A stretch of DNA of 64,000 bases. Origin: an uncultured Gammaproteobacteria bacterium (GTDB lineage: Bacteria > Patescibacteriota > Patescibacteriia > VMEV01 > CAYQCH01). The notes beneath the pieces were generated by a model. It did not search any database. It worked only from the letters and a program-made list of their open reading frames with translations, and was not told the origin of the DNA. The first letter of the stretch is position 1. Each line of letters begins with the position of its first letter. The position numbers and the translations under genes were made by a program. The stretch covers positions 316,210-380,209 of the forward strand of contig CAZDCG010000001.1 of assembly GCA_964503955.1 (NCBI GenBank), read 5' to 3'. Positions 1 to 64,000 of the stretch are shown in pieces.

Positions 1-105
1 TACAACGCTCGCGCCACCGGCAAAACCACCCGCCGCAAGCGCACCGACATCACCATGTCAAAGCGCAATGAGAAAGCCCTCAACCAGGCACTTCCATACG
101 CTTAA
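1..105 (+). CDS. rpmI: 50S ribosomal protein L35, C-terminal part (gene starts upstream of the window)
   Basis: Frame 1 reads ...TRRKRTDITMSKRNEKALNQALPYA*, the characteristic L35 C-terminus (-LPYA). It sits immediately upstream of rplT, as in the conserved infC-rpmI-rplT arrangement. Confidence 0.7.
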   Translation, partial: YNARATGKTTRRKRTDITMSKRNEKALNQALPYA

Positions 106-221
106 AGGGGGCTACTGTTCTTAGATTGAATTGATTTATCTAGAGTTTATAGGTTTTAGTTTATAGGTTTTAGCCAAGGGTTGAAACTGAAAACTACAAC
201 CTAAAAACTACAACCTAACCT
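106..221 (+). promoter_or_regulatory. rpmI-rplT intergenic leader with two short tandem duplications (tttataggttttag x2; aaaactacaacctaa x2) and no SD before rplT
   Basis: Direct reading of the sequence. The last 13 nt, aacctaacctATG, are shared with the trpS upstream region. Confidence 0.3.
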
Positions 222-566
222 ATGCCACGAGTAAAACGAGGAACAATGCACGTCAAACGTCGCCGCAATATCCTCAAGCAAACCAAAGGCTACTACAGCG
301 GACGCAAGAACCTCATCAAGCTCGCTCAGACAGCCATCCTGAAAGCCGGCCAGCATGCTCTGCGCGACCGCCGCGACAAGAAATCAAATCAGCGCAAACT
401 GTGGAATATCCAGATCAACGCGGCTGCCCGCCTGAATGGAACGAAGTACAGCAAGCTGATTGACGGCCTGAAGAAGAAGAATATCGAGCTTGACCGCAAA
501 GTCCTTGCCCAGCTCGCGAATGAGAACCCGGAAGTCTTCAGCAAAGTCGTAGAAGCAACAAAATAA
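222..566 (+). CDS. rplT: 50S ribosomal protein L20
   Basis: 114 aa; MPRVKRG...KRRRNILKQTKGYYG...NQRKLWNIQINAAAR is canonical L20. Confidence 0.95.
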   Translation: MPRVKRGTMHVKRRRNILKQTKGYYSGRKNLIKLAQTAILKAGQHALRDRRDKKSNQRKLWNIQINAAARLNGTKYSKLIDGLKKKNIELDRKVLAQLANENPEVFSKVVEATK

Positions 567-571
567 GAAAA

Positions 572-598
572 GCCCCTCATGCCGAGGGGTTTTTTCTT
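572..598. terminator. Bidirectional rho-independent terminator (cccctcatgccgagggg + T-run)
   Basis: Perfect GC-rich hairpin followed by TTTTTT after rplT; the reverse complement is also followed by T-rich sequence for the convergent ORF 611..943. Confidence 0.7.
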
Positions 599-610
599 GT
601 TCGAAGCGAG

Positions 611-943
611 CTATTGCTGCTGTCCGCCTCTTGCCTCTTGAATGAATTCATCAAGTTTCTGCGCATGATCATGCAATTTCTGTACGTATTCTTCATCATC
701 CGAGGTGATGATCACTTGAAATCCATTTTTGAGTTCGACGATTTCAAATTCGATCGCGTCGCTTTTATACATTTCAAGTTCACGCTGCAATTCTTCATGC
801 ATGTCTTTATCCTGCCGATACCGGTCCCGCTCATAGCGTGCTTGAACCGGGTCCAGGGCGAAGGCAAAAGCTCCAACGAGAAGAGAGCCAAGCACCAACG
901 AAGACGCTGTTGTCTTCCAATTGAACCTGTCTTTTTGCTCCAT
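611..943 (-). CDS. hypothetical protein with N-terminal membrane anchor
   Basis: 110-aa ORF with a hydrophobic N-terminal segment (SSLVLGSLLVGAFAFA) and a charged coiled region; no recognisable family. Confidence 0.4.
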   Translation of the reverse strand: MEQKDRFNWKTTASSLVLGSLLVGAFAFALDPVQARYERDRYRQDKDMHEELQRELEMYKSDAIEFEIVELKNGFQVIITSDDEEYVQKLHDHAQKLDEFIQEARGGQQQ

Positions 944-1070
944 AGATAATGATTAACGGTAAGTGCCAAATAATACATCGGCACTGCCGGCGTCTTTCGC
1001 GCAAGGCAAAGACATTTCTCTGATCTATGGAAATATGTTCAAAGATTTCTGCCTAAAAGCATCTGAACAG

Positions 1071-1415
1071 CTACGTTGAATGCTTTCTTGCAATCAAAGA
1101 AGAAACAAAAAATCCTGCCATGCCGATGATTAAATCCCAGATCATGTCGATCGCAGGTTCAGGGCGGAAGACCAAATCGCCAAGCGCGCCCTCAACGGTC
1201 TCATAACCGATCACCGTGATAAGTGCAAGCCAGAACGCATTGCGCAAGCGGAATTTGCGCAAGAGAACACCAAGCGCCAAGCCGCTTGTAAAATGCACGA
1301 ATGTCCAGCGGTCAAAGTAGAATAGTTCCGATCTATACATGGTGGTCGCCAGCCAGTCTTCAATCGGATTAGGTGGAATAAGACGTTTCATGCCGTCATT
1401 ATAGCGAATTCGCAA
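1071..1415 (-). CDS. hypothetical small membrane protein
   Basis: 114-aa ORF with 3 predicted TM segments. Confidence 0.4.
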   Translation of the reverse strand: MRIRYNDGMKRLIPPNPIEDWLATTMYRSELFYFDRWTFVHFTSGLALGVLLRKFRLRNAFWLALITVIGYETVEGALGDLVFRPEPAIDMIWDLIIGMAGFFVSSLIARKHST

Positions 1416-1424
1416 AAAACCGCA

Positions 1425-3538: not shown

Positions 3539-3644
3539 AGGTAGTTATGATGCCTGAGGGAAAAAGGATTGGCAATGTCTTCTAAAAGATGAAGAGCCGG
3601 TTTGTGTGAAACAAACCGGCTCCATATGATGGCGCGAACCAGCA

Positions 3645-3965: not shown

Positions 3966-4152
3966 CCCTCATGTCTTTGCGCTGAACCGGTTCAGAATGC
4001 CCGCGCTGTAGCACAGGTTCGTCATTTCAGCAAAAATACCCGGTATTGTCAACCATGCGCGAAGGAGCTCGCAGCAAGGCTGGACTATTGCCCTGATTTT
4101 ATGCTACGATCCTTTGTCATGAGCACTTGCTCATGCGCAAGGGGGATTTTCC

Positions 4153-4314: not shown

Positions 4315-4325
4315 CCCCGAAGCGA

Positions 4326-4373
4326 TGACCCTGCCGTGGAGACTCCTCTCCGCGGCAGGGTCGCTATGTTTTT
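4326..4373. terminator. rho-independent terminator (gaccctgccg...cggcagggtc + TGTTTTT), bidirectional
   Basis: 10-bp GC stem followed by a T-run; lies between convergent small ORFs. Confidence 0.6.
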
Positions 4374-5371: not shown

Positions 5372-5447
5372 GGACCGGTGGTGTAGCGGTTAACATGCCT
5401 CCCTGTCACGGAGGAGATCGCGGGTTCGATTCCCGTCCGGTCCGCCA
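5372..5447 (+). tRNA. tRNA-Asp (anticodon GTC)
   Basis: GGACCGGTGGTGTAGCGGTTAACATGCCTCCCTGTCACGGAGGAGATCGCGGGTTCGATTCCCGTCCGGTCCGCCA. The cloverleaf, CTGTCAC anticodon loop, GTTCGATTC T-loop and encoded CCA are very close to E. coli tRNA-Asp. Confidence 0.9.
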
Positions 5448-6628
5448 CGAAGAGCCCCGTATTCACGGGGTTTTTCGTTTTGGGGCGCGGGCGTGTTGCC
5501 CACGGGTTGCCCAAGGATTGCTGAAGTCGGCGCCAGTGTCGGCGTGAGCGGCCCCAACTGGAAGACGAAGGACGATACCTCTCGCGCCGGCGAGAGCGGC
5601 CGACGGTCAAGCCGATCGACGAACTCCTTGAGGCGAGAGGGCTCGAGGTGGCTGTAGCGCATGGTGACCCGAATGTCACTATGGCCCAGCAGTTCCTGCA
5701 CGACCTTGAGGTGAGCGCCCGTTGCCACGAGGTGCGAGGCGAAGGTGTGGCGCAGTACATGCCACCCGACTTTGCGGAGGCCGGCAGCGGCGCACGCTTG
5801 CTTGAGCACGCGCGCCATGGCGTCTTGGTCCGAGTGCTTGCGGCCCGCGTCTTGCCCGAAGACAAAGCCCCTGCGGTGCGGCCATGCCCTCAGTGCTTCC
5901 TTCACGTCCTCGCTGAGCGGCACGTGGCGGATCTTGTTGCTCTTGGGAGGGCCGAGGCGGCGTCTCACCAGTGCCCGCCTCACCGTCAGCAGGCTCCCCT
6001 CGAGGTCGACGTCGGACCAGTCCAGCGCCAGCAGCTCTCCCAGGCGGAGCCCGGTGCGCATGGCGACGAGCACGACTCCACGCCAGAACGTGTCCTTCAT
6101 GCTCCGCAAGAGACGTTCGCTCTCCTCCAGCGTGAGGAAGTCGAACGCCTGAGGTGGAACGGGAAGAAGCCGGATCTTCGGGCGGCGGTCGAGCTCGCCC
6201 CACTCCTCGGCAATGCTAAGAGCCCGGCCGAGGGCGGCCAGGTAGTTGTTGACGGTCTTGGGCGCATAACCCTCTGCGCGCCTCGCCGCCTTGAAGCTCT
6301 CGATCAGCTTGGGGGAGATCTCATCGAGCCCGCACTCCCCGAAGAAGGGCAAGAGCTGACGGTCCAGAATAGACCGCTTCGTGCGCTGCTCGGAGTGGCG
6401 GTTGTTGGGCACGACGTACTCTCGGTACCACCGCTCGGCGAACTCCGCGAAAGTGGTGGCCTTGACGACAGGTGCGTCTGGATCAAAGCCGAGCGCGAGC
6501 TGGCGGCGGAAGTAGGTTTCGTACGCGGCAGCGCCCGCCCGGCTGCTTTCCGGGCTCTTGCGGCGATAGCGGATGCCAGCGTGGCGGAAGTCAATCCACC
6601 AGCGGTTGCGGATCTTGCGAGCGCTCAT
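5390..6628 (-). CDS. int: tyrosine-type site-specific integrase (phage-integrase family)
   Basis: Core-binding and catalytic domains with R...HVLRHTFASHLV (HxxR)...RVTMRYSHL (catalytic Tyr). The ORF runs with no stop through the att core and into the tRNA on the opposite strand, so the last ~60 codons are probably not authentic or reflect the recombinant junction. Confidence 0.9.
   Translation of the reverse strand: MSARKIRNRWWIDFRHAGIRYRRKSPESSRAGAAAYETYFRRQLALGFDPDAPVVKATTFAEFAERWYREYVVPNNRHSEQRTKRSILDRQLLPFFGECGLDEISPKLIESFKAARRAEGYAPKTVNNYLAALGRALSIAEEWGELDRRPKIRLLPVPPQAFDFLTLEESERLLRSMKDTFWRGVVLVAMRTGLRLGELLALDWSDVDLEGSLLTVRRALVRRRLGPPKSNKIRHVPLSEDVKEALRAWPHRRGFVFGQDAGRKHSDQDAMARVLKQACAAAGLRKVGWHVLRHTFASHLVATGAHLKVVQELLGHSDIRVTMRYSHLEPSRLKEFVDRLDRRPLSPAREVSSFVFQLGPLTPTLAPTSAILGQPVGNTPAPQNEKPREYGALRGGPDGNRTRDLLRDREAC
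5424..5448 (+). repeat. attL core (within tRNA-Asp 3' end)
   Basis: Exact 25-nt match to 9326-9350. Confidence 0.85.
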
Positions 6629-6894
6629 GGGGTGTTGTCGTCAACGGAGCCCACGCGGTGCTTGGCCAAGTAGGCCGCCAGGTCCTCCCGCGAGAAGCGC
6701 AGACTGCGGAGTACGCGGTGGAAGGGCAGCCGGCGCTGCTCCACAAGTCTGTAGACGCTGGCCCTGGAGATACCCAGCTGGCGGGCGACCTGGTCTGGCG
6801 TGAGGAGAAGGGGCGGCAAGGCGTGGTCCGGACGATGATGCCGTGGTTGGGCCGAATTGCGCAAATCCGGACTGTGGATAAGATCGTTGAGCAT
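6625..6894 (-). CDS. xis: excisionase/AlpA-like helix-turn-helix DNA-binding protein
   Basis: LLTPDQVARQLGISRASVYRLVEQRRLPFHRV is the HTH_17/Xis signature; overlaps the int start by 4 nt (xis-int operon). Confidence 0.7.
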   Translation of the reverse strand: MLNDLIHSPDLRNSAQPRHHRPDHALPPLLLTPDQVARQLGISRASVYRLVEQRRLPFHRVLRSLRFSREDLAAYLAKHRVGSVDDNTP

Positions 6895-7074
6895 GTTTTA
6901 TGTGGCTAAGGCTAGCGGAGAATCTATGTCCTCCCGCCCGGCAGGGACACGAACCTCGGTCGGTGTCCCTGCCAGGGTGACGGCGGCGCGAGGTGCGGCC
7001 GCACAGGCGCGAGGGCGCCCGGGAGGTGGCCAGCGGTGAGCTGGCCACGCCCGTGCCCGGGCGCTTCCGACCGG

Positions 7075-7635
7075 TCACGAGCTTGGCCTTCTCGTAGGCG
7101 GGAGAATCTTCTGCTCAATCAGATATGCCGCACCCACGGCTGCAGCGTCGAACATGTTGAGCCAGAAGGTCTCCTTCCACGCGTGGGTCTGGATCTTGTA
7201 AATCGCTAGTTCGGGGTAACGACGAATGATCTCGGTGGCGACAGTGGGCTTCTTGGCGTTTCCGTTCAGGCAGAGAATCGCTCGCGCTGAGCGCGGGGCA
7301 TACTCGACGACCAAGCCGTCGACGACGACGACCCGCTGCTCTCCGCTAGTGCGGACCGTCACCCGGTCGTTCACGACGACGGCGTCGCCGCTTCCGGGCT
7401 CGAGATCGAAGAACGTCTGCTGCTCGTCTTGGCTCACCCGGCAATCGTGCCTTACGGCCTCGTTGCCGCAAGGCAATAACGGGACACGTTCTGGTCCGCG
7501 CAATTGCCCGAGCGCTCCCGGGCCAAGCCCGCCTGTAGCGGCATCAGCAGGCGCTACGAGCCGCCGGCGGAGTCGAAAGGCGGACACATTGCGGTCCGCA
7601 GCTACCCGGCTGCCAGCCCTGCTACGACAGGGCAT
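7075..7635 (-). CDS. island cargo, hypothetical protein (start uncertain; the N-terminal ~60 codons may be non-coding)
   Basis: Only non-low-complexity frame in GC-rich DNA; the C-terminal ~110 aa (VVVNDRVTVRTSGEQRVVVVDGLVVEYAPRSARAILCLNGNAKKPT...IYKIQTHAWKETFWLNMFDAAAVGAAYLIEQK) is globular-looking; no family recognised by eye. Confidence 0.35.
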   Translation of the reverse strand: MPCRSRAGSRVAADRNVSAFRLRRRLVAPADAATGGLGPGALGQLRGPERVPLLPCGNEAVRHDCRVSQDEQQTFFDLEPGSGDAVVVNDRVTVRTSGEQRVVVVDGLVVEYAPRSARAILCLNGNAKKPTVATEIIRRYPELAIYKIQTHAWKETFWLNMFDAAAVGAAYLIEQKILPPTRRPSS

Positions 7636-7975
7636 GTCAGGAGGTCTGGAGTCTGGAGGAGGTGCGCGCCCACTTCCGGCGCCGCCTCGACGCCTACGTC
7701 TGCGAGGTCATGACCGAGCGCGCGTCCGCGCGCGCGGCGCTGGCCCCCAGGAAGGCCGACGATCGCAGCGCGACACTCCCCTACGGCTGCGGGACCTACT
7801 GGCTGGTCCGCTTCCACGGCGCGTCATGCGAGCACGCCCCGCCGGCCTGAGCGGCGAGCCGGGCCGCCGCGACGCGAGGCGCCCGGCGCGAGCGAGCTCG
7901 ATTGCGCGGCGCGCAGGCCGAGCGTGGATCGACGGAGCGCTGGAGCTCGCGGACGGCGCGGCAGTACCTGCCCAC

Positions 7976-8611
7976 TCACTGACCAGGACGAGGCGGAGCA
8001 TGCGCGAGAGCACTGAACTCGCCTACGTTCTGCATGGCATAATCAATAAGGCAATCATAAACGCGATCGCACTCGCCCTCAAAATTTAGAAACACCCTAC
8101 CCACAACGGTATCCTCCAAGCGCCCGTCGTATGCCCCGATACTCTCCAAGAACTCTCGACGTGCGTCGAGGTCTAGATGGGGATTTGGCCCTGGGAATGC
8201 GGCTACCGCCTCCGCCAAGTAACGAGCGGCATCGCGTGCCCCTATCTCCTCCAATGCCTGCACAAAAACAGAATACGACGGATTCCCGCCCCCGGCGAGA
8301 AGGTAGCAGTAGGCGTCGAGCAGAAACGGCTTGGCCTGGTCGAAGTCGAGCCAGATCAGGGCGTCAGCAATTTGACACCGCTCGCCAAAGTCGGCAAAAT
8401 CAAGAACGCTCACGTGGGGTGTTTCCTCGTGGGCCAGGATCCAGTTTACGCTGGACCTGGGGTAGCAGGTGGCTCCACCGCCTGCTGCCCGAACCCAGCA
8501 CTTGATCCCCCTGGCAGCCCTGGCGCAGTCAGGGGGTTTTCGTTGCAGGAGGGCGTGATCGATAGGCCGAGGGTGCTGCACCCGGCAAAAACAACGGACA
8601 GCATGGCACAA
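7976..8611 (-). CDS. island cargo, hypothetical protein (likely starts at the internal GTG near VSVLDFADF; ~145 aa)
   Basis: Conserved-looking region ...LDFADFGERCQIADALIWLDFDQAKPFLLDAYCYLLAGGGNPSYSVFVQALEEIG...; the N-terminal part of the long ORF is Cys/Arg-rich junk typical of wrong-frame GC-rich DNA. Confidence 0.4.
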   Translation of the reverse strand: MCHAVRCFCRVQHPRPIDHALLQRKPPDCARAARGIKCWVRAAGGGATCYPRSSVNWILAHEETPHVSVLDFADFGERCQIADALIWLDFDQAKPFLLDAYCYLLAGGGNPSYSVFVQALEEIGARDAARYLAEAVAAFPGPNPHLDLDARREFLESIGAYDGRLEDTVVGRVFLNFEGECDRVYDCLIDYAMQNVGEFSALAHAPPRPGQ

Positions 8612-8727
8612 ATAACGGCGATGACGGCTACTTTGCTAGTCGAGCCACCACTCTCGCGGCCAGTGGTCTGTGCATAGCCCTTGACAGTTAAGGAATTATG
8701 AACCAATCTCTGCCTAGAGTCGCTCAC
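8446..8727 (-). CDS. possible small lipoprotein (signal peptide + FAGC lipobox), island cargo
   Basis: Alternative frame overlapping the 5' end of the previous ORF: ...KVAVIAVICAMLSVVFAGCSTLGLSITPSCNENP... has a classic n-h-c lipoprotein signal; ends just before the probable GTG start of the downstream gene. Confidence 0.25.
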   Translation of the reverse strand: MSDSRQRLVHNSLTVKGYAQTTGRESGGSTSKVAVIAVICAMLSVVFAGCSTLGLSITPSCNENPLTAPGLPGGSSAGFGQQAVEPPATPGPA

Positions 8728-9325
8728 CTTTGTCCTCCCGTGGAAGGGTGCGCGATCCGCTGCTCCGGGAGCACCAGATCCGCCACCTGTGGCCTTGCTC
8801 CAGGTGCGTCAACACCCGGGGCTCGCGGCTCAGCGGCCCCCGAGGTCTACAGCTTCGGGGGTCTTCTCGCGCGAAAACCGATCTGACGATTCCGTGTGTC
8901 GGGCCCAGAGTCAACTGATTTCCCAACGACAGAATGAAAACCTCTCCACACCTTCTCAACGTCCGAGGCAGGGGCGCGTAACGCGCTGTTCTGTCAGGCC
9001 TTGCTCTTCGCGCGCGGTGGAGAGCAGGGCGAGAGTGACCAGGGCACAGACGGACAGGAGTCGCCTCCCTCGCTCCCGCTGCGAGATCGTCTTGTGGGAC
9101 GAGAGAGCAGTCGGACGAGATCCCACCGAGTCAGCGACTTGGCACCTGTGGCCGGTCTGGTCGTCCATGAGCTCCGGCGTTGACCGTTGCCCACCGATTG
9201 CCCAGGAAGTGCGGATTCAGCGGGGAAACAGCGCTGAACTGACCTGAGCTGAGAATCTCGATTCTGAGCTAAGGTTAGAGGAATTCCGCTAGAGCTAGCG
9301 ACGCTTCCGCTTTCGCCTCCTGCGC

Positions 9326-9350
9326 GTTCGATTCCCGTCCGGTCCGCCAC
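9326..9350 (+). repeat. attR core (duplicated tRNA-Asp 3' end)
   Basis: Exact 25-nt match to 5424-5448 with no tRNA body upstream of it. Confidence 0.85.
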
Positions 9351-13334: not shown

Positions 13335-13344
13335 TCAAGAGCGT

Positions 13345-15788: not shown

Positions 15789-16874
15789 CTAGGGCTTGAA
15801 CTCCCAGACCTCGTGCTTGTCAGCATCGTAGAAGTAGGTCACGCCGTTATGCGGCTGGCCATCGTCCGAGACGCGGAAGTAGCTGTCGACGACGAACGGA
15901 GCGTCTGCCCCGCTCTGGCGCGTGAAGCTGTTGTCTGCCAGGTCGTAGACGTGCACCCGGTAGCCGGACGGCTGCGCGTCGTCCCTGAGCAGGAAGATCC
16001 TGCCGTTTCCGGCGAAGAGCACATCGCCGCTGATGCCGTCCGGGTGCGTGGCCCCCAGCGTCACCATCGGCTTGGACATGGCCAGCGTGGCGGGCAGGTC
16101 AATGCTCACGACGCGGCGGTTCTCGTTGACCTGCGCCTGTGACAGGTAGTACCCGCCGCCGAGGATGACGAAGGTGTCACCCACCACCGTGCCCAGGCCG
16201 CGGTGCGGGATGGCATCGAGGTCCTGCGTGGTGATCACGTCCCAGGTGTCGGTGCTCTCGTTGAACACATCCAGGCTGGCCTGCCGTTCGAGCTCGAAGC
16301 GGCTGATGTAGCCGTGGCCGGCCAGCAGGCGGTACATCCGCCCGTTGTAGACGAAGTAGTAGCCCTGCTCGTGGGCCGAAGCCGACAGCTTGACCCAGCC
16401 GTTCTGGCCGAGCCGCAGCATGGCCCCAACCGGCGCGGGACTGGGCGGCCACGCCAGCGAGGGCTGGATGGCGTAGAGCGCCTGCGCGGTTCTGAGCAGG
16501 GTCGCGCCGCTGTTCTCCAGGACATTGGGCACGACCATGCCGCCGAGCGGCGAGGAGGCGCCGTTCAGGTTGAACTTGGCGGCCTTGCTCGACACGTCCT
16601 CACCGACGGGGTTGGACGGGTCGTTCACGATCCCGCCCATGATGTGGACCTCCCGCAGCACCGGGTCGAAGTTGAACCCGGGCCCGGTCCAACCGATCTT
16701 GGCCGAACCGGCGACGAGCGAGGAGTCGAGCGTGGCCACCTTGGTCCAGGTGGCGTTGATGACGTTGGCCGTCGTGACGGCCGAAGTGCCGGGCGAAGTC
16801 GAACGGCTGGTATTGCAGCCGGCCAGGACGATCAGCAGCCCGCAGAGAGCCGCGGAAGCGAAAACGTGTCGCAT
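15789..16874 (-). CDS. GC-rich lipoprotein, hypothetical (possibly beta-propeller-like)
   Basis: Lipoprotein signal MRHVFASAALCGLLIVLAGC; TTGACA-17-TATTTT promoter and GGAGAGGGG SD upstream; GC content clearly above neighbours. Confidence 0.6.
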   Translation of the reverse strand: MRHVFASAALCGLLIVLAGCNTSRSTSPGTSAVTTANVINATWTKVATLDSSLVAGSAKIGWTGPGFNFDPVLREVHIMGGIVNDPSNPVGEDVSSKAAKFNLNGASSPLGGMVVPNVLENSGATLLRTAQALYAIQPSLAWPPSPAPVGAMLRLGQNGWVKLSASAHEQGYYFVYNGRMYRLLAGHGYISRFELERQASLDVFNESTDTWDVITTQDLDAIPHRGLGTVVGDTFVILGGGYYLSQAQVNENRRVVSIDLPATLAMSKPMVTLGATHPDGISGDVLFAGNGRIFLLRDDAQPSGYRVHVYDLADNSFTRQSGADAPFVVDSYFRVSDDGQPHNGVTYFYDADKHEVWEFKP

Positions 16875-25709: not shown

Positions 25710-26855
25710 ATGGCTTCAGACGATCTCCTCTCCCGCTTTGACGCTTTGCTCGCGCCCTATGCCGTGCACAATGCAGGCGACCATCACCGCGCGTACAAAG
25801 AAGACGCACATCCCGACAAACTGCCGTTCGCGCGCGACCGGGATCGTATCGTGCATTCCAAGGCATTTCGCAGACTCAAACATAAAACCCAGGTAATCGT
25901 CAGCCCAAAAGACGATCATATCCGCGACCGCTTAACTCATAGCCTTGAAGGGGCCCAGATCGCGCGCAGCCTTTGCCGTTCCCTGCGGCTCAACGAAGAT
26001 CTAGCGGAAGCGGCCATCCTTGCCCATGATCTTGGCCATCCCCCGTTCGGCCATGAAGGCGAATACGCGCTGCATGAAATGCTTGAGCCGCTCGGATTTG
26101 CTTTTGATCATAATGCTCATGGCGAGCGCATCGTTACCTTGCTTGAGAAACAATATCCGGATTTTCCCGGATTGAACCTGACGCGTGAAACGCTGGCGGC
26201 TATTCGCAAACATCACGTACCGTGGGAAGATCCAAAAGCCACGCTGCCGCACCAGGCAAGCATTGAAGCGCAAATCGTCAATCTCGCGGATGAAATCGCC
26301 TACTACTCGCATGATATCGACGACGGGCTGCGCGCGCATTTGCTGAGAATCGAAGACCTGCTTGAATTGCAGATCGGCCGGGCCGTGCACAAAGTGATTG
26401 AAAAGCGCTATCCAAACCTTACGACCCATGACCGGCTCTATCGGCCGCAATTCGTCCGTTTCGTGATCCACCTGCTGATTGCTGACATTGTCAAAACAAC
26501 GGAACGGAATGTGCGCGACAAACAAATCTCTTCTCTGGCTGATGTCTACGCGCTTGATCATCCGGTCGCATCCTACAGCAAGCAGATGGATGACATGACC
26601 CAGGAACTGAGAAACTACCTGTATAAAACGTTCTATAGCTCTGAACCCGTTCGACGTTTCACGCAAGAAGGCCGCGAGCTTTTGCAGGAATTGTTTACGC
26701 AGCTCTATCAACGCCCGGAACATCTTCCCCAGCATATCCGCGAGCAGATCGACACCCTTGAACCGCGAGCCATTGTGGTCAAAGACTATATCGCGGGCAT
26801 GACCGACCATTTTGCCAAGGAGATGGTGTATAAGTTGAGAGGAAGCTTGGTATGA
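25710..26855 (+). CDS. dgt: dGTPase-like HD-domain triphosphohydrolase
   Basis: HSLEGAQIARSL...HDLGHPPFGHEGE HD motif of the dGTP triphosphohydrolase family. Confidence 0.85.
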   Translation: MASDDLLSRFDALLAPYAVHNAGDHHRAYKEDAHPDKLPFARDRDRIVHSKAFRRLKHKTQVIVSPKDDHIRDRLTHSLEGAQIARSLCRSLRLNEDLAEAAILAHDLGHPPFGHEGEYALHEMLEPLGFAFDHNAHGERIVTLLEKQYPDFPGLNLTRETLAAIRKHHVPWEDPKATLPHQASIEAQIVNLADEIAYYSHDIDDGLRAHLLRIEDLLELQIGRAVHKVIEKRYPNLTTHDRLYRPQFVRFVIHLLIADIVKTTERNVRDKQISSLADVYALDHPVASYSKQMDDMTQELRNYLYKTFYSSEPVRRFTQEGRELLQELFTQLYQRPEHLPQHIREQIDTLEPRAIVVKDYIAGMTDHFAKEMVYKLRGSLV

Positions 26856-27280
26856 CGGGTACAAATCACCAATCGGATACAAATTTACAAATATCCGGCG
26901 GGAAAGTCATTCACAAAGAACTAAGTTATACGATCGTAGGAATCCTGTTTGATGTTTACAATGAGCTTGGATATGGGCATAAAGAGAAGTATTATGAAAA
27001 CGCAATTGCCGTTGCTTTTGATACGAGGGGGATTAGTTATGAAAGACAAAAAAGAACGCCACTTTTCTTTCAAAATGCAAAAATAGGTGATTATTATTTA
27101 GATTTTCTCGTAGAAGAGAAAATTGTTTTAGAATTAAAGCGGGGAAATCGTTTCCCAAAATCACACATTGATCAAGTTATGGGTTATCTGAAACAGACGG
27201 GACTTCAACTGGCCATTCTCGCGACATTTTCTGTTGACGGTGTTAAGTTTCTAAGAGTTCTAAATGGAGTTAAAGAGTAG
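26852..27280 (+). CDS. GxxExxY family protein (PD-(D/E)XK-like; rRNA-IVS-associated family)
   Basis: ...ELSYTIVGILFDVYNELGYGHKEKYYENA...YYLDFLVEEKIVLELK... matches the GxxExxY family; the gene is bounded by ~36-bp terminal inverted repeats. Confidence 0.8.
   Translation: MTGTNHQSDTNLQISGGKVIHKELSYTIVGILFDVYNELGYGHKEKYYENAIAVAFDTRGISYERQKRTPLFFQNAKIGDYYLDFLVEEKIVLELKRGNRFPKSHIDQVMGYLKQTGLQLAILATFSVDGVKFLRVLNGVKE
26858..26895 (+). repeat. Left terminal inverted repeat of the GxxExxY cassette (gggtacaaatcaccaatcggatacaaatttacaaat)
   Basis: Reverse complement of 27280-27315 with 3-4 mismatches; near-identical copy at 48427-48460. Confidence 0.8.
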
Positions 27281-36812: not shown

Positions 36813-38009
36813 TTACAGCGTGTCGTCCATCGTCAGCGGGACAAGAGTTGCCGCAAACATCACGAGGGCCAAAAAGACAAATACCCCGTTTAAAGAAACT
36901 CCGGCCGCGAGCAGCAAAGAAGCAGCTACCGGCCCGATAACATACGCAAGCGGCCCTGTGCCACGGAAAAGATTGATCAAATCAAGATCGTCCGCGTCCA
37001 CTTTTTTGTAAAAATATGTATCGCGCATGATTTCAACCAAGGCGGCTCCCACGCGCGAACAGAAAAGAATGACCATCAATGCGGCAAAACTGGAAAAGAA
37101 AATCATCGCCAGACCGCAAATCCCCATCAAGGCGAATCCGACGGCGAGCATTTCCGTTTCGCCAAGGTATTTATCTGCCAGCCAGCCGGCCGGGTACTGG
37201 ATTAAAGCAAACGGAATAAGCATGACGGTAAAAATTTGGCCGATTTTCTCCCATGATAATCCCAAATCCAGCAGATAAATCGGCGTATAAATCACCATGA
37301 ATGAATAGAAAAAGGAAAGCAGCAGCGCCACAAGATAAATCCCTCGCAGATTTTTATCTGCAAGAATTTCTTTGAGCGCTGCTTTCAATTTAATCTGCCT
37401 TCGATATTTTTCATGTCCGTTATTTCTGTACGTAGCAAAAATCATTCCCCAAACGGGAATAAGCACAAGCGCGGCCAGAAAATAGGTTTGTGAAAATCCA
37501 TACCGCTCAACAAGAACACCGGTTATCGTCGGCGCAACCACAAAAGCAAGATTCACGCAGGTCCAAAACAAACCTCGAATACGGCCGGTTTCACTGTTTC
37601 TGGTAACAAATTCCAACAGAACATCGAAATTGATGACAATCACCGCATTCGCGCAAATCCAAACAAGAAAAGCGGCCAGGGACAGAGCTGGGTGCAGATT
37701 CACGGATAGCAAAAGAAGGGCACATACCTGCACAATCAACACGGTGAGAAAGACAACATGATTCTTGAATTTTTCAATGAAGCGGCCGTAGTATTGAATC
37801 AACAAAAAGGCGAGCGCATACCCCAACGCGAAAAATGACCCGACCACGGATTTGGGAATAAGCGTTTCAAGAAAGGACGAATTGATATACGCCACCAGCG
37901 CGCCTGAGGCACTTGCAAAAAAACCGCATGAGAGGATGACCTGGATAAGACTGCGATTTTGTTTGCGCGTAGCTTGAATGATTTCTGGCATATGAAAATA
38001 TTGTAACAT
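36813..38009 (-). CDS. MFS transporter
   Basis: 12-TM profile in two 6-TM halves. Confidence 0.8.
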   Translation of the reverse strand: MLQYFHMPEIIQATRKQNRSLIQVILSCGFFASASGALVAYINSSFLETLIPKSVVGSFFALGYALAFLLIQYYGRFIEKFKNHVVFLTVLIVQVCALLLLSVNLHPALSLAAFLVWICANAVIVINFDVLLEFVTRNSETGRIRGLFWTCVNLAFVVAPTITGVLVERYGFSQTYFLAALVLIPVWGMIFATYRNNGHEKYRRQIKLKAALKEILADKNLRGIYLVALLLSFFYSFMVIYTPIYLLDLGLSWEKIGQIFTVMLIPFALIQYPAGWLADKYLGETEMLAVGFALMGICGLAMIFFSSFAALMVILFCSRVGAALVEIMRDTYFYKKVDADDLDLINLFRGTGPLAYVIGPVAASLLLAAGVSLNGVFVFLALVMFAATLVPLTMDDTL

Positions 38010-52411: not shown

Positions 52412-52975
52412 ATGATGCCAAAGGAGGAAGAAGTGCTGTGCAAAAACCAATGCGGAAAACCGGAATACCTTGAAGATCTCTGCGAGGATTGCCATAAAGA
52501 GGCAAGACTCAAGGCCATCGAGGAACGAATTCGCCGGGAGGAAAGCGAACTCACGCCGGCAGAAGACAGGAAGCGTGCCGACCTTGCTCTAAAAGAGCTT
52601 GTAAACAATCAGCCTCTTTCAGAGCCGCCGAAGAAAGCCGCGCGGCCAAAAAAGAAGAAGCGGTCAGCGGCAAAATCGGCACAAGCTGCTGCGGTAAAAA
52701 CGAACGAGAAGCAGCCTCGATCCGCGCTAAAGCAGAAGCGAACCAAGCCGACCACGGTTGAATCAACACCCGCCAAGGCAACCTGCCTGGTGCCGGATTG
52801 CAGTGAAGCGCCGGACCGCGACGGTCTTTGCGTCTGCTGCCGCTCCATGCTGATCCTGTGGCGAAATGAGCGCGATCGTCTGGACAAATGCCCCATCCTG
52901 ATTTCGGGCAGCCAGGTGGAGACCTTCAAGCGGCACTTCCCGGATCGCGCTGCCGAAATGGATCCCGGTGCCTGA
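52412..52975 (+). CDS. Cys-module protein with a Lys/Ala-rich linker (probable start at GTG 52433 after AAGGAGG)
   Basis: Two C-x3-C-x7-8-LC-x-x-C-H/R modules (CKNQCGKPEYLEDLCEDCH; CLVPDCSEAPDRDGLCVCCR) of the same type as the downstream gene. Confidence 0.45.
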   Translation: MMPKEEEVLCKNQCGKPEYLEDLCEDCHKEARLKAIEERIRREESELTPAEDRKRADLALKELVNNQPLSEPPKKAARPKKKKRSAAKSAQAAAVKTNEKQPRSALKQKRTKPTTVESTPAKATCLVPDCSEAPDRDGLCVCCRSMLILWRNERDRLDKCPILISGSQVETFKRHFPDRAAEMDPGA

Positions 52976-53067: not shown

Positions 53068-54129
53068 ATGGATTCTGTGTTATCCAGCAGTCACAAGCCC
53101 CTTCCTCAAGGGCGCGACAGGAAACCACGCTGGGAGGTCTGCCGAAACGGCTGCGCCGAAATTGTATTCGCAAACGGTATCTGCATTGACTGTTTTCTTG
53201 GCGGAGTCCACGCTCTTGTTAAGAAACCCGTTTTACAGCCACCAGCACCAGCAAAACCTGAACCACCACTACCGCCGCCCCCACAAGCCTTTTCATGGAT
53301 TTGCGCTCACTGCACAGATCCGGTTTACCGCGGAATTTACTGCAAAGGGCACTGGACTTTGCTTACCCCGTCCTTTTGTGCAAGAGAGGGGTGCCGCAAG
53401 CTCATCGCCGCAGGAGATTACTGCAAAGAGCACTATGAGGAGTGGTGGAAGGAAAGGACCAGAAAGCGCGGGCAAAGCGGCTGTCTAGCGGCTGAAGTCA
53501 AATGCAATCGATCGCATAAGTCTCATGGGTTGTGCGAAAGACATTACAGCCAATTTCGAAAGCACGGCGATACATCCTACCTGCTGCCCCGGCTGCGATT
53601 GAAATGCCGCTTTCCGGATTGCGGCCGGTATCGCGGCTCAGGAGGCTATTGTTCAACGCACGCCGCTCAACTGCGCGCAACCGGAAAAACACGAGCAATC
53701 AGGCCTTCGAAAATGGCCGAATACTGTTCCATGCCGAGATGCGGACAACCCCATCACGCCAAAGGATATTGTCACGAGCACTATGGCAAATTCCTGAGAC
53801 GTAAGGGGAGAACACCCCACCCCGTCTGCGCGCATCCAGGCTGTGAACGGCGCACAACAGAGAAGTATTGCAAAACACATCGCAGACAGTTCCTCAAGCA
53901 TGGCCGCACCACTGACATACGGACAGGCCCCGTACTCTGCGAGATCCCCCAATGCGGAGGCATTCACCGCAACACCGGACTCTGCCGTAGACATACGCGA
54001 GTGCTTGAGCGTCTTGTGCGCCGCATGACGGAAGATTTCCACTGGCCAACCCCCGAGGAGCGCCAGGTTCACGCGATTGCCTTGAGTCATGGATCTCAGG
54101 TTGCAAAACGTGTCATTCTCGTCGCCTAA
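53068..54129 (+). CDS. protein with ~8 tandem C-x2-4-C-x6-9-C-x2-H zinc-finger-like modules
   Basis: Repeats such as CRNGCAEIVFANGICIDCF, CAREGCRKLIAAGDYCKEHY, CRFPDCGRYRGSGGYCSTHA, CSMPRCGQPHHAKGYCHEHY, CAHPGCERRTTEKYCKTHR, CEIPQCGGIHRNTGLCRRHT; AAAGGAG SD. Confidence 0.55.
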   Translation: MDSVLSSSHKPLPQGRDRKPRWEVCRNGCAEIVFANGICIDCFLGGVHALVKKPVLQPPAPAKPEPPLPPPPQAFSWICAHCTDPVYRGIYCKGHWTLLTPSFCAREGCRKLIAAGDYCKEHYEEWWKERTRKRGQSGCLAAEVKCNRSHKSHGLCERHYSQFRKHGDTSYLLPRLRLKCRFPDCGRYRGSGGYCSTHAAQLRATGKTRAIRPSKMAEYCSMPRCGQPHHAKGYCHEHYGKFLRRKGRTPHPVCAHPGCERRTTEKYCKTHRRQFLKHGRTTDIRTGPVLCEIPQCGGIHRNTGLCRRHTRVLERLVRRMTEDFHWPTPEERQVHAIALSHGSQVAKRVILVA

Positions 54130-54756: not shown

Positions 54757-55746
54757 ATGAAACAACGCATTCTTTCGGGCGTGCAGCCCTCAGGCGACCT
54801 TCATATCGGCAACTATATCGGCGCGCTCAAACAATGGGTGAATCTTCAGGACAAGTATGAAAATTACTTCTGCGTGGTGGATCACCATGCTATAACCGTT
54901 CCCCAAGATCCGCAGGATTTACGCCGCCGAACGGTTGAAATTGCCAAATGGTATCTTGCCTGCGGTATTGATCCTGATCGGTCAACAATTTTTATCCAGT
55001 CGCATGTTCCGGCACATACCGAGCTAGCCTGGATTCTTTCTTCCCTGACAAAAATCCCCGAAATGGAACGCATGACACAGTTCAAGGACAAATCCGCCAA
55101 GTCGCCAAAGAACGTGAATGCCGGTTTATTCACCTATCCTATTTTGATGGCAGCGGATATCCTGCTCTATCAAGCAAACCTCGTGCCTGTTGGAGATGAC
55201 CAGACTCAGCATCTGGAATTTACGCGCGTGATCGCTCGACGATTCAACCAGCACTATCAGCAGGAAATTTTTACTGAGCCGGAACAATTCACCCCGCCCC
55301 AGGGAGCGCGCGTCATGTCTTTAAGCGAGCCGGAGAAGAAAATGAGCAAAAGCGACCGTTCGCAAAACTCGCTCATTTATTTGATTGACGATGAAGAAAC
55401 GATCAAGAAGAAAATCAAAAAGGCAGTCACCGATTCCGGCGATGAAATCGAATACAGCGACAATAAACCGGCGCTGAAAAACCTGCTGACAATTTATAGC
55501 GCGTTTTCCGGCGAACCGATCCCGCAAATTGTGAAACATTATAACGGCATGGGATATAAACTCTTCAAAGAAGGCTTGTCAAAAACGATTATCGAGGGTC
55601 TCCGACCGATTCAGGAAACCTACGCCAAGCTTGAGAAAGATCCTTCCTATGTCCATGCGATTCTTGCAAACGGCGCGGAGAAAGCAAATCAGCTCGCGCA
55701 ATCAACTCTGCGTAATATCAAAAACGCCGTGGGATATTATTCATAA
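54757..55746 (+). CDS. trpS: tryptophanyl-tRNA synthetase
   Basis: SGVQPSGDLHIGNY (HIGH) and KMSKS motifs; 329 aa. Confidence 0.95.
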   Translation: MKQRILSGVQPSGDLHIGNYIGALKQWVNLQDKYENYFCVVDHHAITVPQDPQDLRRRTVEIAKWYLACGIDPDRSTIFIQSHVPAHTELAWILSSLTKIPEMERMTQFKDKSAKSPKNVNAGLFTYPILMAADILLYQANLVPVGDDQTQHLEFTRVIARRFNQHYQQEIFTEPEQFTPPQGARVMSLSEPEKKMSKSDRSQNSLIYLIDDEETIKKKIKKAVTDSGDEIEYSDNKPALKNLLTIYSAFSGEPIPQIVKHYNGMGYKLFKEGLSKTIIEGLRPIQETYAKLEKDPSYVHAILANGAEKANQLAQSTLRNIKNAVGYYS

Positions 55747-61190: not shown

Positions 61191-62900
61191 ATGTCCTACA
61201 ACGAACTTATCAAACAAATCGTCGCGCAACAACCGTCATCCAGAAACGAGATGCAGACGATCATTCGTACACATATCAAATCACGCGGAGCATCCTTTCC
61301 GCGTTTTTCGCATTTGCTTGAAGCCTATCGATCCTTGGTGGCCGGCAAGGAGCTTGAAGCGCAGCCCTGGCTTGAGCCGCTGCTTATCAAACGCGCGATC
61401 CGCACGCTTTCGGGCGTAGCGCCTGTCCATGTCATGACGGCACCGCTTGGATGTCCGGCCAATTGCCTGTACTGCCCGAATGAGCCGGGCATGCCCAAAA
61501 GCTATCTTTCCAATCAGCCGGGTTCCATGCGCGCGATTCTCAATGACTTTGACCCGTACAAACAAGTCACCATGCGGCTGCGCGCGCTCTATCAGAACGG
61601 ACACCATCCCGAAAAAATCGAATTGGTTGAAAATGGCGGAACATGGACCGCGCTGCCACGTCGTTACCGCACCTGGTTTATCACCCGCTGCTATCAAGCT
61701 GCCAATGATTTTGATCCTCAAGACTTTGTCAAAACAACGGACTTCATTCCGTCTAATAATTCCCGTTTGACGATTTTAAACCGGCTCAAAGAACAGCCTG
61801 ATCATCTGCTGAAAGCATCGCTGCGCTTGCATGACGAAGACGACGAGGATTTGCTTACCGAACTTTTTGCCGCGCAAAAGATGAATGAAACAGCCCGCTA
61901 TCGCATCATCGGCATCACGCTTGAAACCCGCCCTGACTGGCTGGCTGATGATGAAATCCATCACCTGCGTCTCATGGGCTGCACCAAGCTTGAGATCGGC
62001 GTACAAAGCATCAATGAAGAAGTATTGAAATGGAATAATCGCGGACATGGCGTAGAGGCAGTTATTAACGCGACGCAAGCCTTGCGCGACGCGGGCTTTA
62101 AAGTCGGCTACCATATGATGCCGGGGATGTTTAAGTCCACACCGGAATCAGACAAACAAATGTTTGTGGAGCTCTTCGCCAACCCCGCGTTTAAGCCGGA
62201 CTTTCTCAAAGTTTATCCTTGCGTTGTCGTGCAAGAAGCTCCTCTGTATAAACTCTGGGAGCGCGGTGAGTATAAACCCTATGAAGGAGACGAACTCATC
62301 GACGTACTGATTACCATTTCACAGACCTTCCCCCGCTATTGCCGCGTCGCGCGCCTCATTCGCGATATTCCTTCAGAAAGTATTTCGGGCGGGAATAAAA
62401 TCACCAATCTCAGAGAAGTCGTTGAGCAAAACATGCGCCAGCTTGGAATTGCTTCGCAAGATATCCGCGCTCGCGAAGTCATGGGCAATGTGCAGAATGA
62501 AGAACTGGCGCACAATGATCTCGTGTATGAAACCATCAACGGCGAAGAGCATTTCCTCAGCTTTGACGGGCAGGATTCCGACAAGCTCTACGCATTCCTG
62601 CGCTTGCGGCTCCCGCAAAGCAATTCCCATTTGATCAAAACAACCTTTCCCGAGCTGATGAATGCCGCGCTGATCCGCGAAGTGCATACCTATGGCAAGC
62701 TCGCGCGTATTGGAAATGACGATGAGACAAAGCAGGCGCAACACAAAGGACTTGGCAAACAGCTGATGGAAAAAGCCGAAGAGCTTGCGCGCAATCGTGG
62801 TTATAAAAAAATCGCCGTCATCGCCGGCGTGGGAACGCGCGAATATTATCGAAAATTCGGCTACGAGCTTGAGGGGACATATATGGTGAAACCGCTCTAA
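61191..62900 (+). CDS. Elp3-like radical SAM + GNAT acetyltransferase (tRNA U34 modification family)
   Basis: Radical-SAM Cys cluster (GCPANCLYCPN), a large radical-SAM core, and a C-terminal GNAT fold (...[41 protein letters not shown]). Confidence 0.8.
   Translation: MSYNELIKQIVAQQPSSRNEMQTIIRTHIKSRGASFPRFSHLLEAYRSLVAGKELEAQPWLEPLLIKRAIRTLSGVAPVHVMTAPLGCPANCLYCPNEPGMPKSYLSNQPGSMRAILNDFDPYKQVTMRLRALYQNGHHPEKIELVENGGTWTALPRRYRTWFITRCYQAANDFDPQDFVKTTDFIPSNNSRLTILNRLKEQPDHLLKASLRLHDEDDEDLLTELFAAQKMNETARYRIIGITLETRPDWLADDEIHHLRLMGCTKLEIGVQSINEEVLKWNNRGHGVEAVINATQALRDAGFKVGYHMMPGMFKSTPESDKQMFVELFANPAFKPDFLKVYPCVVVQEAPLYKLWERGEYKPYEGDELIDVLITISQTFPRYCRVARLIRDIPSESISGGNKITNLREVVEQNMRQLGIASQDIRAREVMGNVQNEELAHNDLVYETINGEEHFLSFDGQDSDKLYAFLRLRLPQSNSHLIKTTFPELMNAALIREVHTYGKLARIGNDDETKQAQHKGLGKQLMEKAEELARNRGYKKIAVIAGVGTREYYRKFGYELEGTYMVKPL
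62798..62900 (+). repeat. elp3 3' end, copy 1 of a ~92-bp direct repeat
   Basis: ttataaaaaaatcgccgtcatcgccggcgtgggaacgcgcgaatattatcgaaaattcggctacgagcttgaggggacatatatggtgaa is repeated at 63638-63730 with ~6 mismatches and one 1-nt deletion. Confidence 0.8.
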
Positions 62901-62951
62901 ATAAATCATCCCCGCAGAATAGGAGCATCCTGCGGGGAATAGGTAGCGGTC

Positions 62952-63548
62952 TCAAACCGCGATATCACCACCCTCTCTTTTGTCCCAACCCCCGTCACGC
63001 AGGTACGTGAAGCCTGTTCCGTTATCGAATCTGAACTGGCCGAATCGATGGAGAGACAACAGCAGTGGAGGGACAGCAAGCTCTGCAAGATCCCAATCAG
63101 CTATCTGAGCGGCCTCTACTGCATCGATGCACTTCAGGCCGGCGTCACGTGCGAGCTCTCGGTCACCGCCTCCGCAAAAGACAAGGTCAACTAAGCAGAC
63201 ATCAGTATGTGGCAGCTCAGGAATCTCAAACTCCAAAATAGAGTGCATCACAGGAAGAGGCAGGTCGTTAAACATGCCACTATTCTCTAGGGCTTTGAGG
63301 CACTCTAGTTCGGCCACATTAACCTGATGACAGGCTAGCGACTCCCGAAGATCCCATTCCCTCAAGACCCTTACCGCACTACCCATTTCTGAGCCTAGGT
63401 GCTTGGTACTCTCATCAATGTCTCGCATGCGTTGAACACAAGCAGCGCTCCAGAGATCGCGCAGCTTCAGAAACGGCTGCACGTCGTAGCCGGATGAGGC
63501 CTCATGCAGCGGCACTGAGAACGAAGCGTTTGTCAGAAAAAAATACAC
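62952..63548 (-). CDS. hypothetical protein carried on the 740-bp insert between the elp3 3'-end repeats
   Basis: 198-aa ORF; no recognisable family. Confidence 0.4.
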   Translation of the reverse strand: MYFFLTNASFSVPLHEASSGYDVQPFLKLRDLWSAACVQRMRDIDESTKHLGSEMGSAVRVLREWDLRESLACHQVNVAELECLKALENSGMFNDLPLPVMHSILEFEIPELPHTDVCLVDLVFCGGGDRELARDAGLKCIDAVEAAQIADWDLAELAVPPLLLSLHRFGQFRFDNGTGFTYLRDGGWDKREGGDIAV

Positions 63549-63637
63549 CAGCTCTCCTTTGAAGTCGCTAATGTAGCGACGTTACACGATACCCTTTTCC
63601 TTCGAAATCGTCAATATCGCTGAGCTAAAAGCAAGCG

Positions 63638-63730
63638 CAGTTATAAAAAATCGCCGTGATCGCCGGCGTGGGAACGCGCGAATACTATCGAAAATTCGGC
63701 TACGAGCTGAAAGGGACATATATGGTGAAG
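63638..63730 (+). repeat. degenerate duplicate of the elp3 3' end (copy 2)
   Basis: See 62798-62900; frameshifted relative to elp3, so non-coding. Confidence 0.8.
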
Positions 63731-63789
63731 AGACTGGATCACGAGATCACCAGAACATGAAATCAAAGAGCAATGATCAAGGAGCAATG

Positions 63790-64000
63790 TTATTCTTTGA
63801 GACGCACAACTTTGCCCTTATTCTTCTTCGCGAATTGCTCCAATTGCTTATCAAATGTCACAAGCTTATAACCGTACTGATTACTCATATATGCAAGCGT
63901 GTAATCAGTGAAAGACATTTTTGTCTTGAAATGAAGAAAGAAAAAGAGCTCCTGCTCATAACCATTCTCAACCAGCCGAGCAGATTGACTGTTAATCAGT
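63790..64000 (-). CDS. PIN-domain (VapC-like) protein, C-terminal part (runs off the window end)
   Basis: ...YGYKLVTFDKQLEQFAKKN... resembles the C-terminal LVTxDxxF motif of PIN nucleases. Confidence 0.3.
   Translation of the reverse strand, partial: LINSQSARLVENGYEQELFFFLHFKTKMSFTDYTLAYMSNQYGYKLVTFDKQLEQFAKKNKGKVVRLKE

Follow-up and report, generated by a model that had tools for sequence, protein, structure and literature searches.

Gene content and the SD-led gene class

The window analysed here, a stretch of 64,000 nucleotides (nt) from contig CAZDCG010000001.1, has a GC content of 51.7% and contains about 63 genes, 16 of which are preceded by a strong Shine-Dalgarno (SD) sequence. These SD-led genes, most of them also GC-rich (class II; Table 1), stand among SD-less genes (class I) that include all of the housekeeping functions. 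The coupling between SD and elevated GC content is real, conserved within the clade, and tied to single genes rather than to mobile islands. Searches against Pfam bear out the identities of the core genes (rplT, thyA, folA, dut, tmk, gatB, miaA, miaB, thrS, dnaE, pheST, trpS, murI, and genes of an ABC transporter, a SNase-type nuclease, and an M23 peptidase). The host is, judging by trpS and miaB homologues at about 70% identity that NCBI names 'Parcubacteria group bacterium', a member of the candidate phyla radiation (CPR)/Parcubacteria group. Proteins identical to those of the window are also encoded on a 454,799-bp NCBI contig.

Table 1. Coordinates of the SD-led genes, the tRNA-Asp island, and exemplary SD-less genes (GC3, GC content at third codon positions; aa, amino acids; ORF, open reading frame)
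Feature	Coordinates	Strand	Properties
Class II gene, 104 aa	3645..3959	-	GC 0.60, GC3 0.72; GAGGGGTG before GTG; Prodigal-called; no Pfam, NCBIfam, or PHROG match
Class II gene, 70 aa	10911..11123	+	GC3 0.90; SD GAGAGGAGG, 5-nt spacer; called as 70 aa on contig L026
Class II gene par133, 133 aa	14121..14522	-	SD AGAGGGGGA
Class II gene par132, 132 aa	14730..15128	-	GC3 0.76; SD GAAAGGGG
Class II gene kelch361, 361-aa predicted lipoprotein (weak Kelch match)	15789..16874	-	GC 0.67, GC3 0.91; SD GAGAGGGGA
Class II gene mem330, 328-aa membrane protein	28958..29944	-	GC 0.60; SD GGGAGGTG
Class II gene hyp104a, 104 aa	33974..34288	+	GC3 0.78; SD AAAGGGGTG
Class II gene hyp104b, 104 aa	34955..35269	-	GC3 0.85; SD AAGGAGGA
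Class II ORF, 82 aa	41066..41314	-	SD GGAGGTGG
Class II gene hyp327, 2OG-Fe(II) oxygenase, 297 aa	46948..47841	-	GC 0.61; SD AAGGAGGG
Class II gene cys187, 180 aa, Cys-rich	52433..52975	+	SD AAAGGAGGA before GTG; TTGACA promoter 5'
Class II gene cys413, 353 aa, tandem Zn-ribbon modules	53068..54129	+	SD GAAAGGAG
Class II small ORF, 59 aa	54289..54468	+	GC3 0.87; SD AGAGGAGG; Prodigal-called
Class II small ORF, 52 aa	55930..56088	-	GC3 0.87; G-rich SD-like GGTGGGGGG
SD-led gene, 198 aa	62952..63548	-	average GC (0.53), an exception to the GC rule; SD AAAGGAGA before GTG
PDDEXK_3 nuclease-family gene	26852..27280	+	AT-rich (36% GC); weak SD GAGAGGAA; lineage-specific insertion
Integrative element in tRNA-Asp	5420..9350		59-69% GC vs 52%; 29-nt direct repeats 5420-5448 and 9322-9350
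tRNA-Asp (GTC), integration target	5372..5447	+	
Tyrosine integrase (PF00589)	5390..6628	-	no SD; start overlaps the upstream gene's stop (ATGA)
HTH_17 excisionase-like gene	6625..6894	-	no SD
rplT, class I example	222..566	+	AACCTAACCT then ATG
trpS, class I; query used to find relatives	54757..55746	+	AACCTAACCT before ATG, as in rplT
MFS transporter gene, class I	36813..37991	-	leaderless-type TACAAT box 8 nt before ATG

SD strength was scored as the best duplex free energy (ΔG) between CACCUCCUUUC, from which the 3' end of the lineage's own 16S rRNA may differ, and positions -20 to -3 of each start, and genes with ΔG <= -8.5 kcal/mol were regarded as SD-led. The resulting distribution is bimodal: 14-16 genes lie at or below the cut-off, and the others at -5.6 kcal/mol or above, mostly at 0. 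The observed frequency (16/63) far exceeds the chance rate of 2.9% (61/2123), measured at any start-like codon with at least 45 codons after it (binomial p = 2.5e-11). For seven SD genes, the SD is already apparent with a plain longest-ORF rule, without re-selection of the start; for three others (cys187, cys413, and hyp56), independent Prodigal calls on other assemblies give the same starts.

Coupling of SD sequences to GC content

Within the window, the GC deviation (dGC) is +0.081 for SD genes versus -0.013 for non-SD genes (Mann-Whitney p = 4.7e-6). With the tRNA-Asp island left aside, an SD is present in all ten genes that exceed the median GC by more than 6%, in 4/5 genes at +3-6%, and in 2/44 of the remaining genes; the dependence of the SD on local GC is thus switch-like. 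GC-richness yielding SD-like motifs by chance was ruled out as an explanation, the internal false-positive rate being 3.0% in GC-rich ORFs versus 2.4% in the others.

A first-pass annotation of this DNA had described it as a mosaic of SD-less core genes and GC-rich segments with strong SDs, and much of that description holds. GC-rich segments were found at all eight places listed (gene-level GC of 0.55-0.67 versus a median of 0.52), and the core genes named as SD-less (rplT, gatB, dnaE, pheT, thrS, trpS, thyA, tmk, and those of the ABC transporter, nuclease, and M23 peptidase) reach a best ΔG of -3.3 kcal/mol or above, mostly 0. All SD strings cited there occur in the sequence at the proper spacing (GAGAGGAGG at 10911 (+), AGAGGGGGA at 14522 (-), and AAGGAGGG at 47841 (-), as well as AAAGGAG at 53068 (+) and AAGGAGGA at 35269 (-) and 52433 (+)). 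The proposed association of SD strength with base composition was borne out in the window, where the bimodal ΔG correlates with dGC (Spearman rho = -0.52), and it recurs in related genomes (p = 5.7e-14, see below). The view of the host as SD-independent also agrees with the data, as SD-like motifs are no more frequent than expected by chance among genes of typical GC (5/168, 3%, window and relatives together). Several SD-led segments had been missed, namely 28958-29944 (-) (GGGAGGTG, GC 0.60), 41066-41314 (-) (GGAGGTGG), and the average-GC SD gene at 62952-63548 (-), along with the AT-rich, weak-SD PDDEXK_3 gene at 26852-27280 (+).

The SD-led class has a uniform anatomy. Among 45 class II genes, 30 carry an exact GGAGG and the others one mismatch, and the spacer measures 4-6 nt in 32. 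The SDs are flanked by A-rich sequence (AAA) on the 5' side and often by TG on the 3' side, an arrangement complementary to a canonical 16S tail. The first 45 nt of the coding sequence fold more stably in class II than in class I (-9.1 versus -4.1 kcal/mol, p = 4e-10), and the same is true of positions -30 to +30 (-12.7 versus -6.9). The GC excess extends over all three codon positions (GC1, GC2, and GC3), with both C and G raised at the third position (C3 and G3), so the excess is compositional rather than a product of codon optimization. An identification of class II with highly expressed, codon-optimized genes was rejected: ribosomal-protein genes raise C3 alone, whereas class II raises G3 and C3 alike.

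Conservation in related genomes

Relatives were reached through homologues of trpS, the ABC ATPase, and miaB, and comprise contigs of seven related genomes (numbered within L030-L036 and L092-L094), for which the supplied Prodigal calls were used. The locus has a GC content of 37-54% in these genomes, the core proteins are typically 65-88% identical to those of the window, and synteny is kept from the ABC transporter to the Elp3-like gene. Among the 167 genes of the relatives, dGC is +0.103 for 31 SD genes versus -0.005 for 136 non-SD genes (p = 5.7e-14), with the same direction in every genome. When all genomes are pooled, the SD frequency rises from 3% at dGC <= 0.03 to 56% at 0.03-0.06 and about 80% above. 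SD genes differ from non-SD genes in the presence of a Pfam match (9% versus 74%) and in median length (142 versus 253 aa).

Four SD genes of the window (28958-29944, 46948-47841, 52433-52975, and 53068-54129) have homologues that occupy the same slot, in the same orientation. In the relatives, where core GC3 is 0.25-0.55, these families lie 4-20% in GC above the background and are SD-led, with GGAGG 4-6 nt before the start; where core GC3 is as low as 0.25-0.30, they still show a GC3 of 0.33-0.71. The syntenic homologues keep SDs of the GAAAGGAGGG type and TTGACA/-10 promoters, while the other intergenic sequence has diverged. Because the SDs are conserved in syntenic homologues, they are probably under selection and read by the host ribosome.

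Other slots behave differently. Several genomes carry SD-led, GC-rich small ORFs between trpS and murI and between hyp386 and thrS, but these are non-homologous. The ORF at 55930-56088 is not homologous to its positional counterpart in L030, and the slot of 41066-41314 holds other SD-led, GC-rich small ORFs in L092 and L094, without homology to that of the window. The miaA-miaB slot (patch F, 33.7-35.3 kb) is empty in the relatives or holds a GDSL lipase; among the GC-rich patches outside the island whose slots could be compared, it is the only one found absent from its syntenic position. GC3 is higher in SD genes present in the window only (0.81) than in those that have syntenic homologues (0.67; p = 0.027). 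No integrase or transposase domain and no border repeats were detected at GC-rich patches other than the island.

Wider searches returned little. A pheT scan of species-representative genomes gave best matches of at most 39% identity, all in unrelated phyla, and a miaB scan of metagenomes gave relatives at no more than 53% identity, on whose loci crude ORF calls were too noisy to gauge generality beyond the clade. Exact look-ups of window proteins retrieved the same population only (SRR118438xx runs), with no structural variants.

Protein families led by SD sequences

Homologues of the membrane protein mem330 (33-52% identity) occupy the tmk-gatB interval in L092/L034, L093, and L094, and each of them is GC-enriched and preceded by GAAAGGAGGG; a profile search of the PDB with this family gave no match. 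The profile of the hyp327 family matched 2OG-Fe(II) oxygenases of the PDB (3on7, E = 7.5e-14), with a conserved HxD...H motif, and homologues at about 25% identity are located between dnaE and hyp98 in L030, L032, and L033. Both cys187 and cys413 sit between pheS and trpS. The latter has syntenic homologues in L030, L032, and L033 with conserved TTGACA/-10 promoter and SD, and consists of about six tandem CxxC...C..H modules that match the N-terminal Zn-ribbon module of phage HNH endonucleases (PHROG 5351, E = 3e-31); no HNH domain was detected in it.

Apart from this Zn-ribbon, class II proteins had no match in tblastn searches of phages or in PHROGs, PADLOC, NCBIfam, and Pfam, and scans of viral contigs with four of the families returned no relatives. 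For kelch361, the SD-led family covered by an exhaustive homologue search, four homologues were found among 1.84e9 representative proteins, the closest (57% identity) being encoded on a 1.9-kb contig. The adjacent par133 and par132 are orphan paralogues (25% identity, E = 5e-15) that have in common an MLF... N-terminus and a PVGW motif. AlphaFold models are poor for hyp104b and par133 (predicted local distance difference test scores, pLDDT, of 52 and 34, respectively).

At 10884-11150, gene callers differ among assemblies of the same population, with an 88-aa minus-strand ORF on two contigs and the 70-aa plus-strand ORF on one. The plus-strand ORF is the likelier gene, given its GC3 of 0.90 and perfect SD. 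Some GC-rich stretches (0.55-0.63) contain neither a convincing ORF nor an Rfam match (4160-4380, 10500-10770, 34290-34950, and 8650-9320) and may represent decayed class II genes or remnants of the island.

Start signals of the SD-less genes

The SD-less genes have a signature of their own. T occupies position -1 in 81-82% of them and G in at most 2% (window and L030-L036, L092-L094), ATG is the start codon in 175/179, and the second codon is most often AAA or AAT. The U(-1) context may be a non-SD signal for start selection in this clade. The pentamers CTAAC/TAACC are mildly enriched upstream of SD-less window genes (6/43 versus 0/43 further upstream), and an identical 13-mer, AACCTAACCTATG, spans the starts of rplT (212-224) and trpS (54747-54759).

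A minority of class I genes look leaderless, to judge from promoter-like boxes close to the start. The extended -10 box of the MFS transporter gene (37992-38010 (-) in the window) is located 6-8 nt before the ATG in four genomes (TGnTACAAT in L093 and L094, TACAAT in the window, and TAGAAT in L092), and its conservation suggests a conserved leaderless architecture; pheS of the window has TATAAT 9 nt before its ATG. As a general statement, the proposition that core genes are mostly leaderless is weakly supported, since TANNNT occurs at -15 to -11 in 23% of class I genes versus 11-20% at control positions, with the MFS gene and pheS as the clear examples.

The tRNA-Asp island

The island is a genuine high-GC integrative element, apart from the SD phenomenon. 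Its border repeats duplicate the 3' end of tRNA-Asp and match at 28/29 positions, and both junctions are present in independent assemblies. Relatives of the integrase, at 41-46% identity, reside on IMG/VR contigs that have, with few exceptions, 60-72% GC. The element resembles other tRNA-targeting tyrosine-integrase elements in its integrase, excisionase-like HTH_17 gene, duplicated tRNA-Asp 3' end, and foreign GC content, but it is only 3.9 kb long and looks partly degraded.

The statement of the first-pass annotation that nearly all genes of GC-rich segments have a strong SD is correct for the other segments but fails here: the four called genes of the island (5390-6628 (-), 6625-6894 (-), 7075-7635 (-), and 7976-8611 (-)) all have a ΔG of 0, and SD-like motifs are limited to two doubtful short ORFs (7036-7209 (+) and 8446-8727 (-)).

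Origin and translation of the SD-led class

Taken as a whole, the observations are best explained by a stable, clade-wide, two-tier gene architecture in this Parcubacteria-group lineage, to which we assign a probability of roughly 0.55. Class I, some 75-80% of the genes including all housekeeping ones, would be translated without SD pairing, from AUG almost exclusively, with a G-poor upstream region, U at -1, and a weakly folded start region. Class II, about 20% of the genes, would consist of short, fast-diverging genes mostly without a known family, each with its own TTGACA/-10 promoter, a leader of 25-40 nt, GGAGG 4-6 nt before the start, and a GC excess of 4-20%. Their GC-rich start regions might fold too stably for the SD-independent route and could be translatable only with a strong SD; selection would then maintain these SDs, and the ribosome would retain a usable anti-SD. 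The class II slots would lie between conserved core genes, some families having presumably been resident since before the sampled relatives split, and other slots turning over. The ancestry of class II is most likely foreign, from higher-GC sources and of very different ages, as suggested by the mutational-type signature, the GC3 of window-only genes, and the turnover of slots. The combined SD/GC signature would accordingly mark a compositional class of genes, not recency of arrival.

Several points weigh against this explanation. A working anti-SD is deduced solely from the conservation of the SDs, and CCUCCU is reportedly missing from about half of the Parcubacteria 16S sequences (PMC9297842); among all retrieved loci, the only 16S 3' end recovered was that of an unrelated CPR bacterium, with the canonical CACCUCCUU. 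The link between structure and SD requirement is a correlation, and the source of the GC excess is left unexplained. The conserved families may not have descended vertically, as illustrated by the membrane protein of L093 and L094: four core proteins show 75-88% identity between the two genomes (85-88% in gatB and miaB) but this protein only 35%, in a comparison of class II with core similarity that comprises four taxa. The DNA of its slot is unalignable between the two, so replacement within the family may have taken place.

Class II could instead be fully native, with the GC excess and SD kept by selection (e.g., in structured, translationally regulated mRNAs) and without foreign origin. This is a less probable alternative, although one that is in line with the persistence of the GC excess in orthologous slots whose core GC3 differs by up to 0.3, the conservation of promoter and SD, the inclusion of real enzymes such as the 2OG oxygenase, and the lack of mobility signatures at the patches. 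Its difficulty is that no selective reason is known for a GC3 of 0.85-0.9 in orphan genes; it also sits badly with the turnover of unrelated ORFs in the slots, with the incongruence of the membrane-protein similarity with core genes, and with the amelioration-like gradient of GC3 between window-only and conserved genes. Horizontally transferred genes ameliorate, as reportedly described by Lawrence and Ochman.

Recent import is improbable as the general explanation. Each GC-rich patch would then derive independently from an SD-using, high-GC bacterium, and its composition and SD would be un-ameliorated donor traits. The four syntenic families, however, keep both traits despite very different background GC, and the patches have neither integrases, transposases, nor flanking repeats and end at single-gene borders. 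The composition is indeed atypical at all codon positions, with GC3 up to 0.91 and higher in window-only SD genes than in conserved ones, and patches D (14.1-16.9 kb) and F are without counterpart in the relatives examined; nevertheless, the best candidate for an import, kelch361, is almost without homologues, and the phage and viral searches found no relatives. A real high-GC integrative element does lie in the same window, but the called genes of this sole proven import lack SDs.

The repeated acquisition from SD-using, higher-GC donors envisaged in the first-pass annotation is therefore plausible for some patches, on the grounds of composition, window-only GC3, and slot turnover, but not as a general and recent explanation, given the four syntenic families and the lack of mobility genes outside the island. 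Its suggestion that the presence of an SD could flag foreign genes did not stand. No called gene of the one demonstrably mobile element is preceded by an SD; PDDEXK_3 and hyp206, both AT-rich insertions specific to this lineage, have at best a weak SD; and the strongest SDs belong to long-resident syntenic genes.

A translational regulon is a further, rather remote interpretation. The ribosomes would be SD-blind by default, with the anti-SD sequestered or partly lost, as in Bacteroidia, and a specialized ribosome state would expose it; the SD-led, GC-rich accessory genes might then be switched on together (e.g., on contact with a host cell), their structured mRNAs remaining silent otherwise.

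That the patch genes are spurious ORFs on GC-rich non-coding DNA, with chance G-runs as SD motifs, is very unlikely: class II translations show the excess of Cys, Arg, Trp, and His that is seen in random GC-rich sequence, several of the ORFs are shorter than 100 aa and without database matches, and two AlphaFold models are poor, but GC3 is far above GC2 in most, four families show protein conservation at E = 1e-15 to 1e-69, profile matches exist in PDB and PHROG, the SD spacing is tight (4-6 nt) against a background rate of 2.4-3%, and no Rfam family maps to the patches.

Comparison with known systems

The two-tier architecture favoured here resembles several described systems in part. Bacteroidia have SD-blind ribosomes, with the anti-SD sequestered by bS21/bS18/bS6, and one or two SD-led genes, rpsU and prfB (PMC7797042, PMC9976891, PMC13000453). 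As in that class, most genes of the present lineage lack an SD and show other upstream cues and weak structure, and a small set carries a strong canonical SD of probable functional significance. The present lineage, in contrast, belongs to the CPR, about 20% of its genes are SD-led, and these are GC-rich and mostly orphans rather than ribosomal or release-factor genes; in place of upstream adenines, the cue before the start is U(-1) within G-poor sequence.

The atypical genes recognized by GeneMarkS-2 usually have a lower GC content than the genome around them (PMC6028130). Class II resembles such atypical or transferred gene classes as a minority with deviant composition, few known families, and variable slots, but its GC is higher, and this deviation persists in syntenic homologues from genomes of 37-52% GC and goes together with a translation signal of its own. 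Groups C and X of the same work combine leaderless or weak signals with some SD-type ribosome binding sites (PMC6028130), and SD-led and non-SD starts likewise coexist here in one genome. In group C, where most first genes have a -10 box about 10 nt upstream of the start, the two kinds of start are divided by place in the operon (first versus internal gene), whereas here they are divided by gene composition, and clear leaderless boxes are a minority in the present clade.

A Parcubacteria subgroup without the anti-SD motif was described from 16S sequences alone, with CCUCCU missing from about half of Parcubacteria 16S and uL1 absent (Tsurumaki et al. 2022, PMC9297842). It belongs to the same phylum-level group and could account for core genes without SD. 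The conserved canonical SDs on a subset of genes argue that the clade still reads SDs, and thus against its membership in that subgroup. Unstructured start regions have been reported to permit SD-less translation (Scharff et al. 2011, PMC3121790); in agreement, SD-less genes here fold more weakly at the start, with the difference that the contrast separates two compositional classes and is conserved in the clade. Relative to these systems, the new elements are that a fifth of the genes is SD-led, that this class is GC-enriched, and that both traits persist in syntenic homologues across a 15% difference in GC.

CPR bacteria constitute a large part of bacterial diversity, and the choice of start codons by their reduced ribosomes is essentially unstudied. 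The present clade offers a natural contrast inside single genomes, with SD use at chance level in core genes and textbook SDs on a conserved fifth, which makes it directly testable whether these ribosomes still read SDs, and on which genes. The presence of an SD or a deviation in GC appears to be a poor guide to recent horizontal transfer. Gene calling in CPR metagenomes needs two start models; the patch at 10.9 kb, for instance, is called on opposite strands between assemblies.

Other features of the region

In L035 (9462-10915), the ABC transporter genes directly follow rplT, whereas 16.5 kb lie between them in the window (600-17000); this stretch is therefore a variable segment. It contains HI0933, pirin, the island, the nuclease, a spermidine-synthase-like protein, M23, and patch D.

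Some window genes are AT-rich, namely the PDDEXK_3 gene at 26852-27280 (36% GC), the gene of a 206-aa hypothetical protein (hyp206) at 28015-28635 (43%), and that of a 23S-rRNA-IVP protein at 32277-32654 (38%). The first two are missing at the same positions in three relatives (for PDDEXK_3, the interval from the HD-dGTPase gene to tmk of L092, L093, and L094), so recent gains of the lineage include AT-rich genes as well; the 23S-rRNA-IVP protein is shared with L093 only.

Upstream of thrS, a T-box leader is located at 40151-40331 (-). It matches Rfam RF00230 over its full length (53.7 bits, E = 6e-9), below the gathering score of 93, and contains the conserved AUGGGUGGAACCGCGGG box; it explains part of the mild rise in GC at about 40.2 kb. 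Towards the end of the window, an Elp3-like radical-SAM/GNAT fusion protein is encoded at 61191-62900 (+), in a position that is conserved in the relatives.

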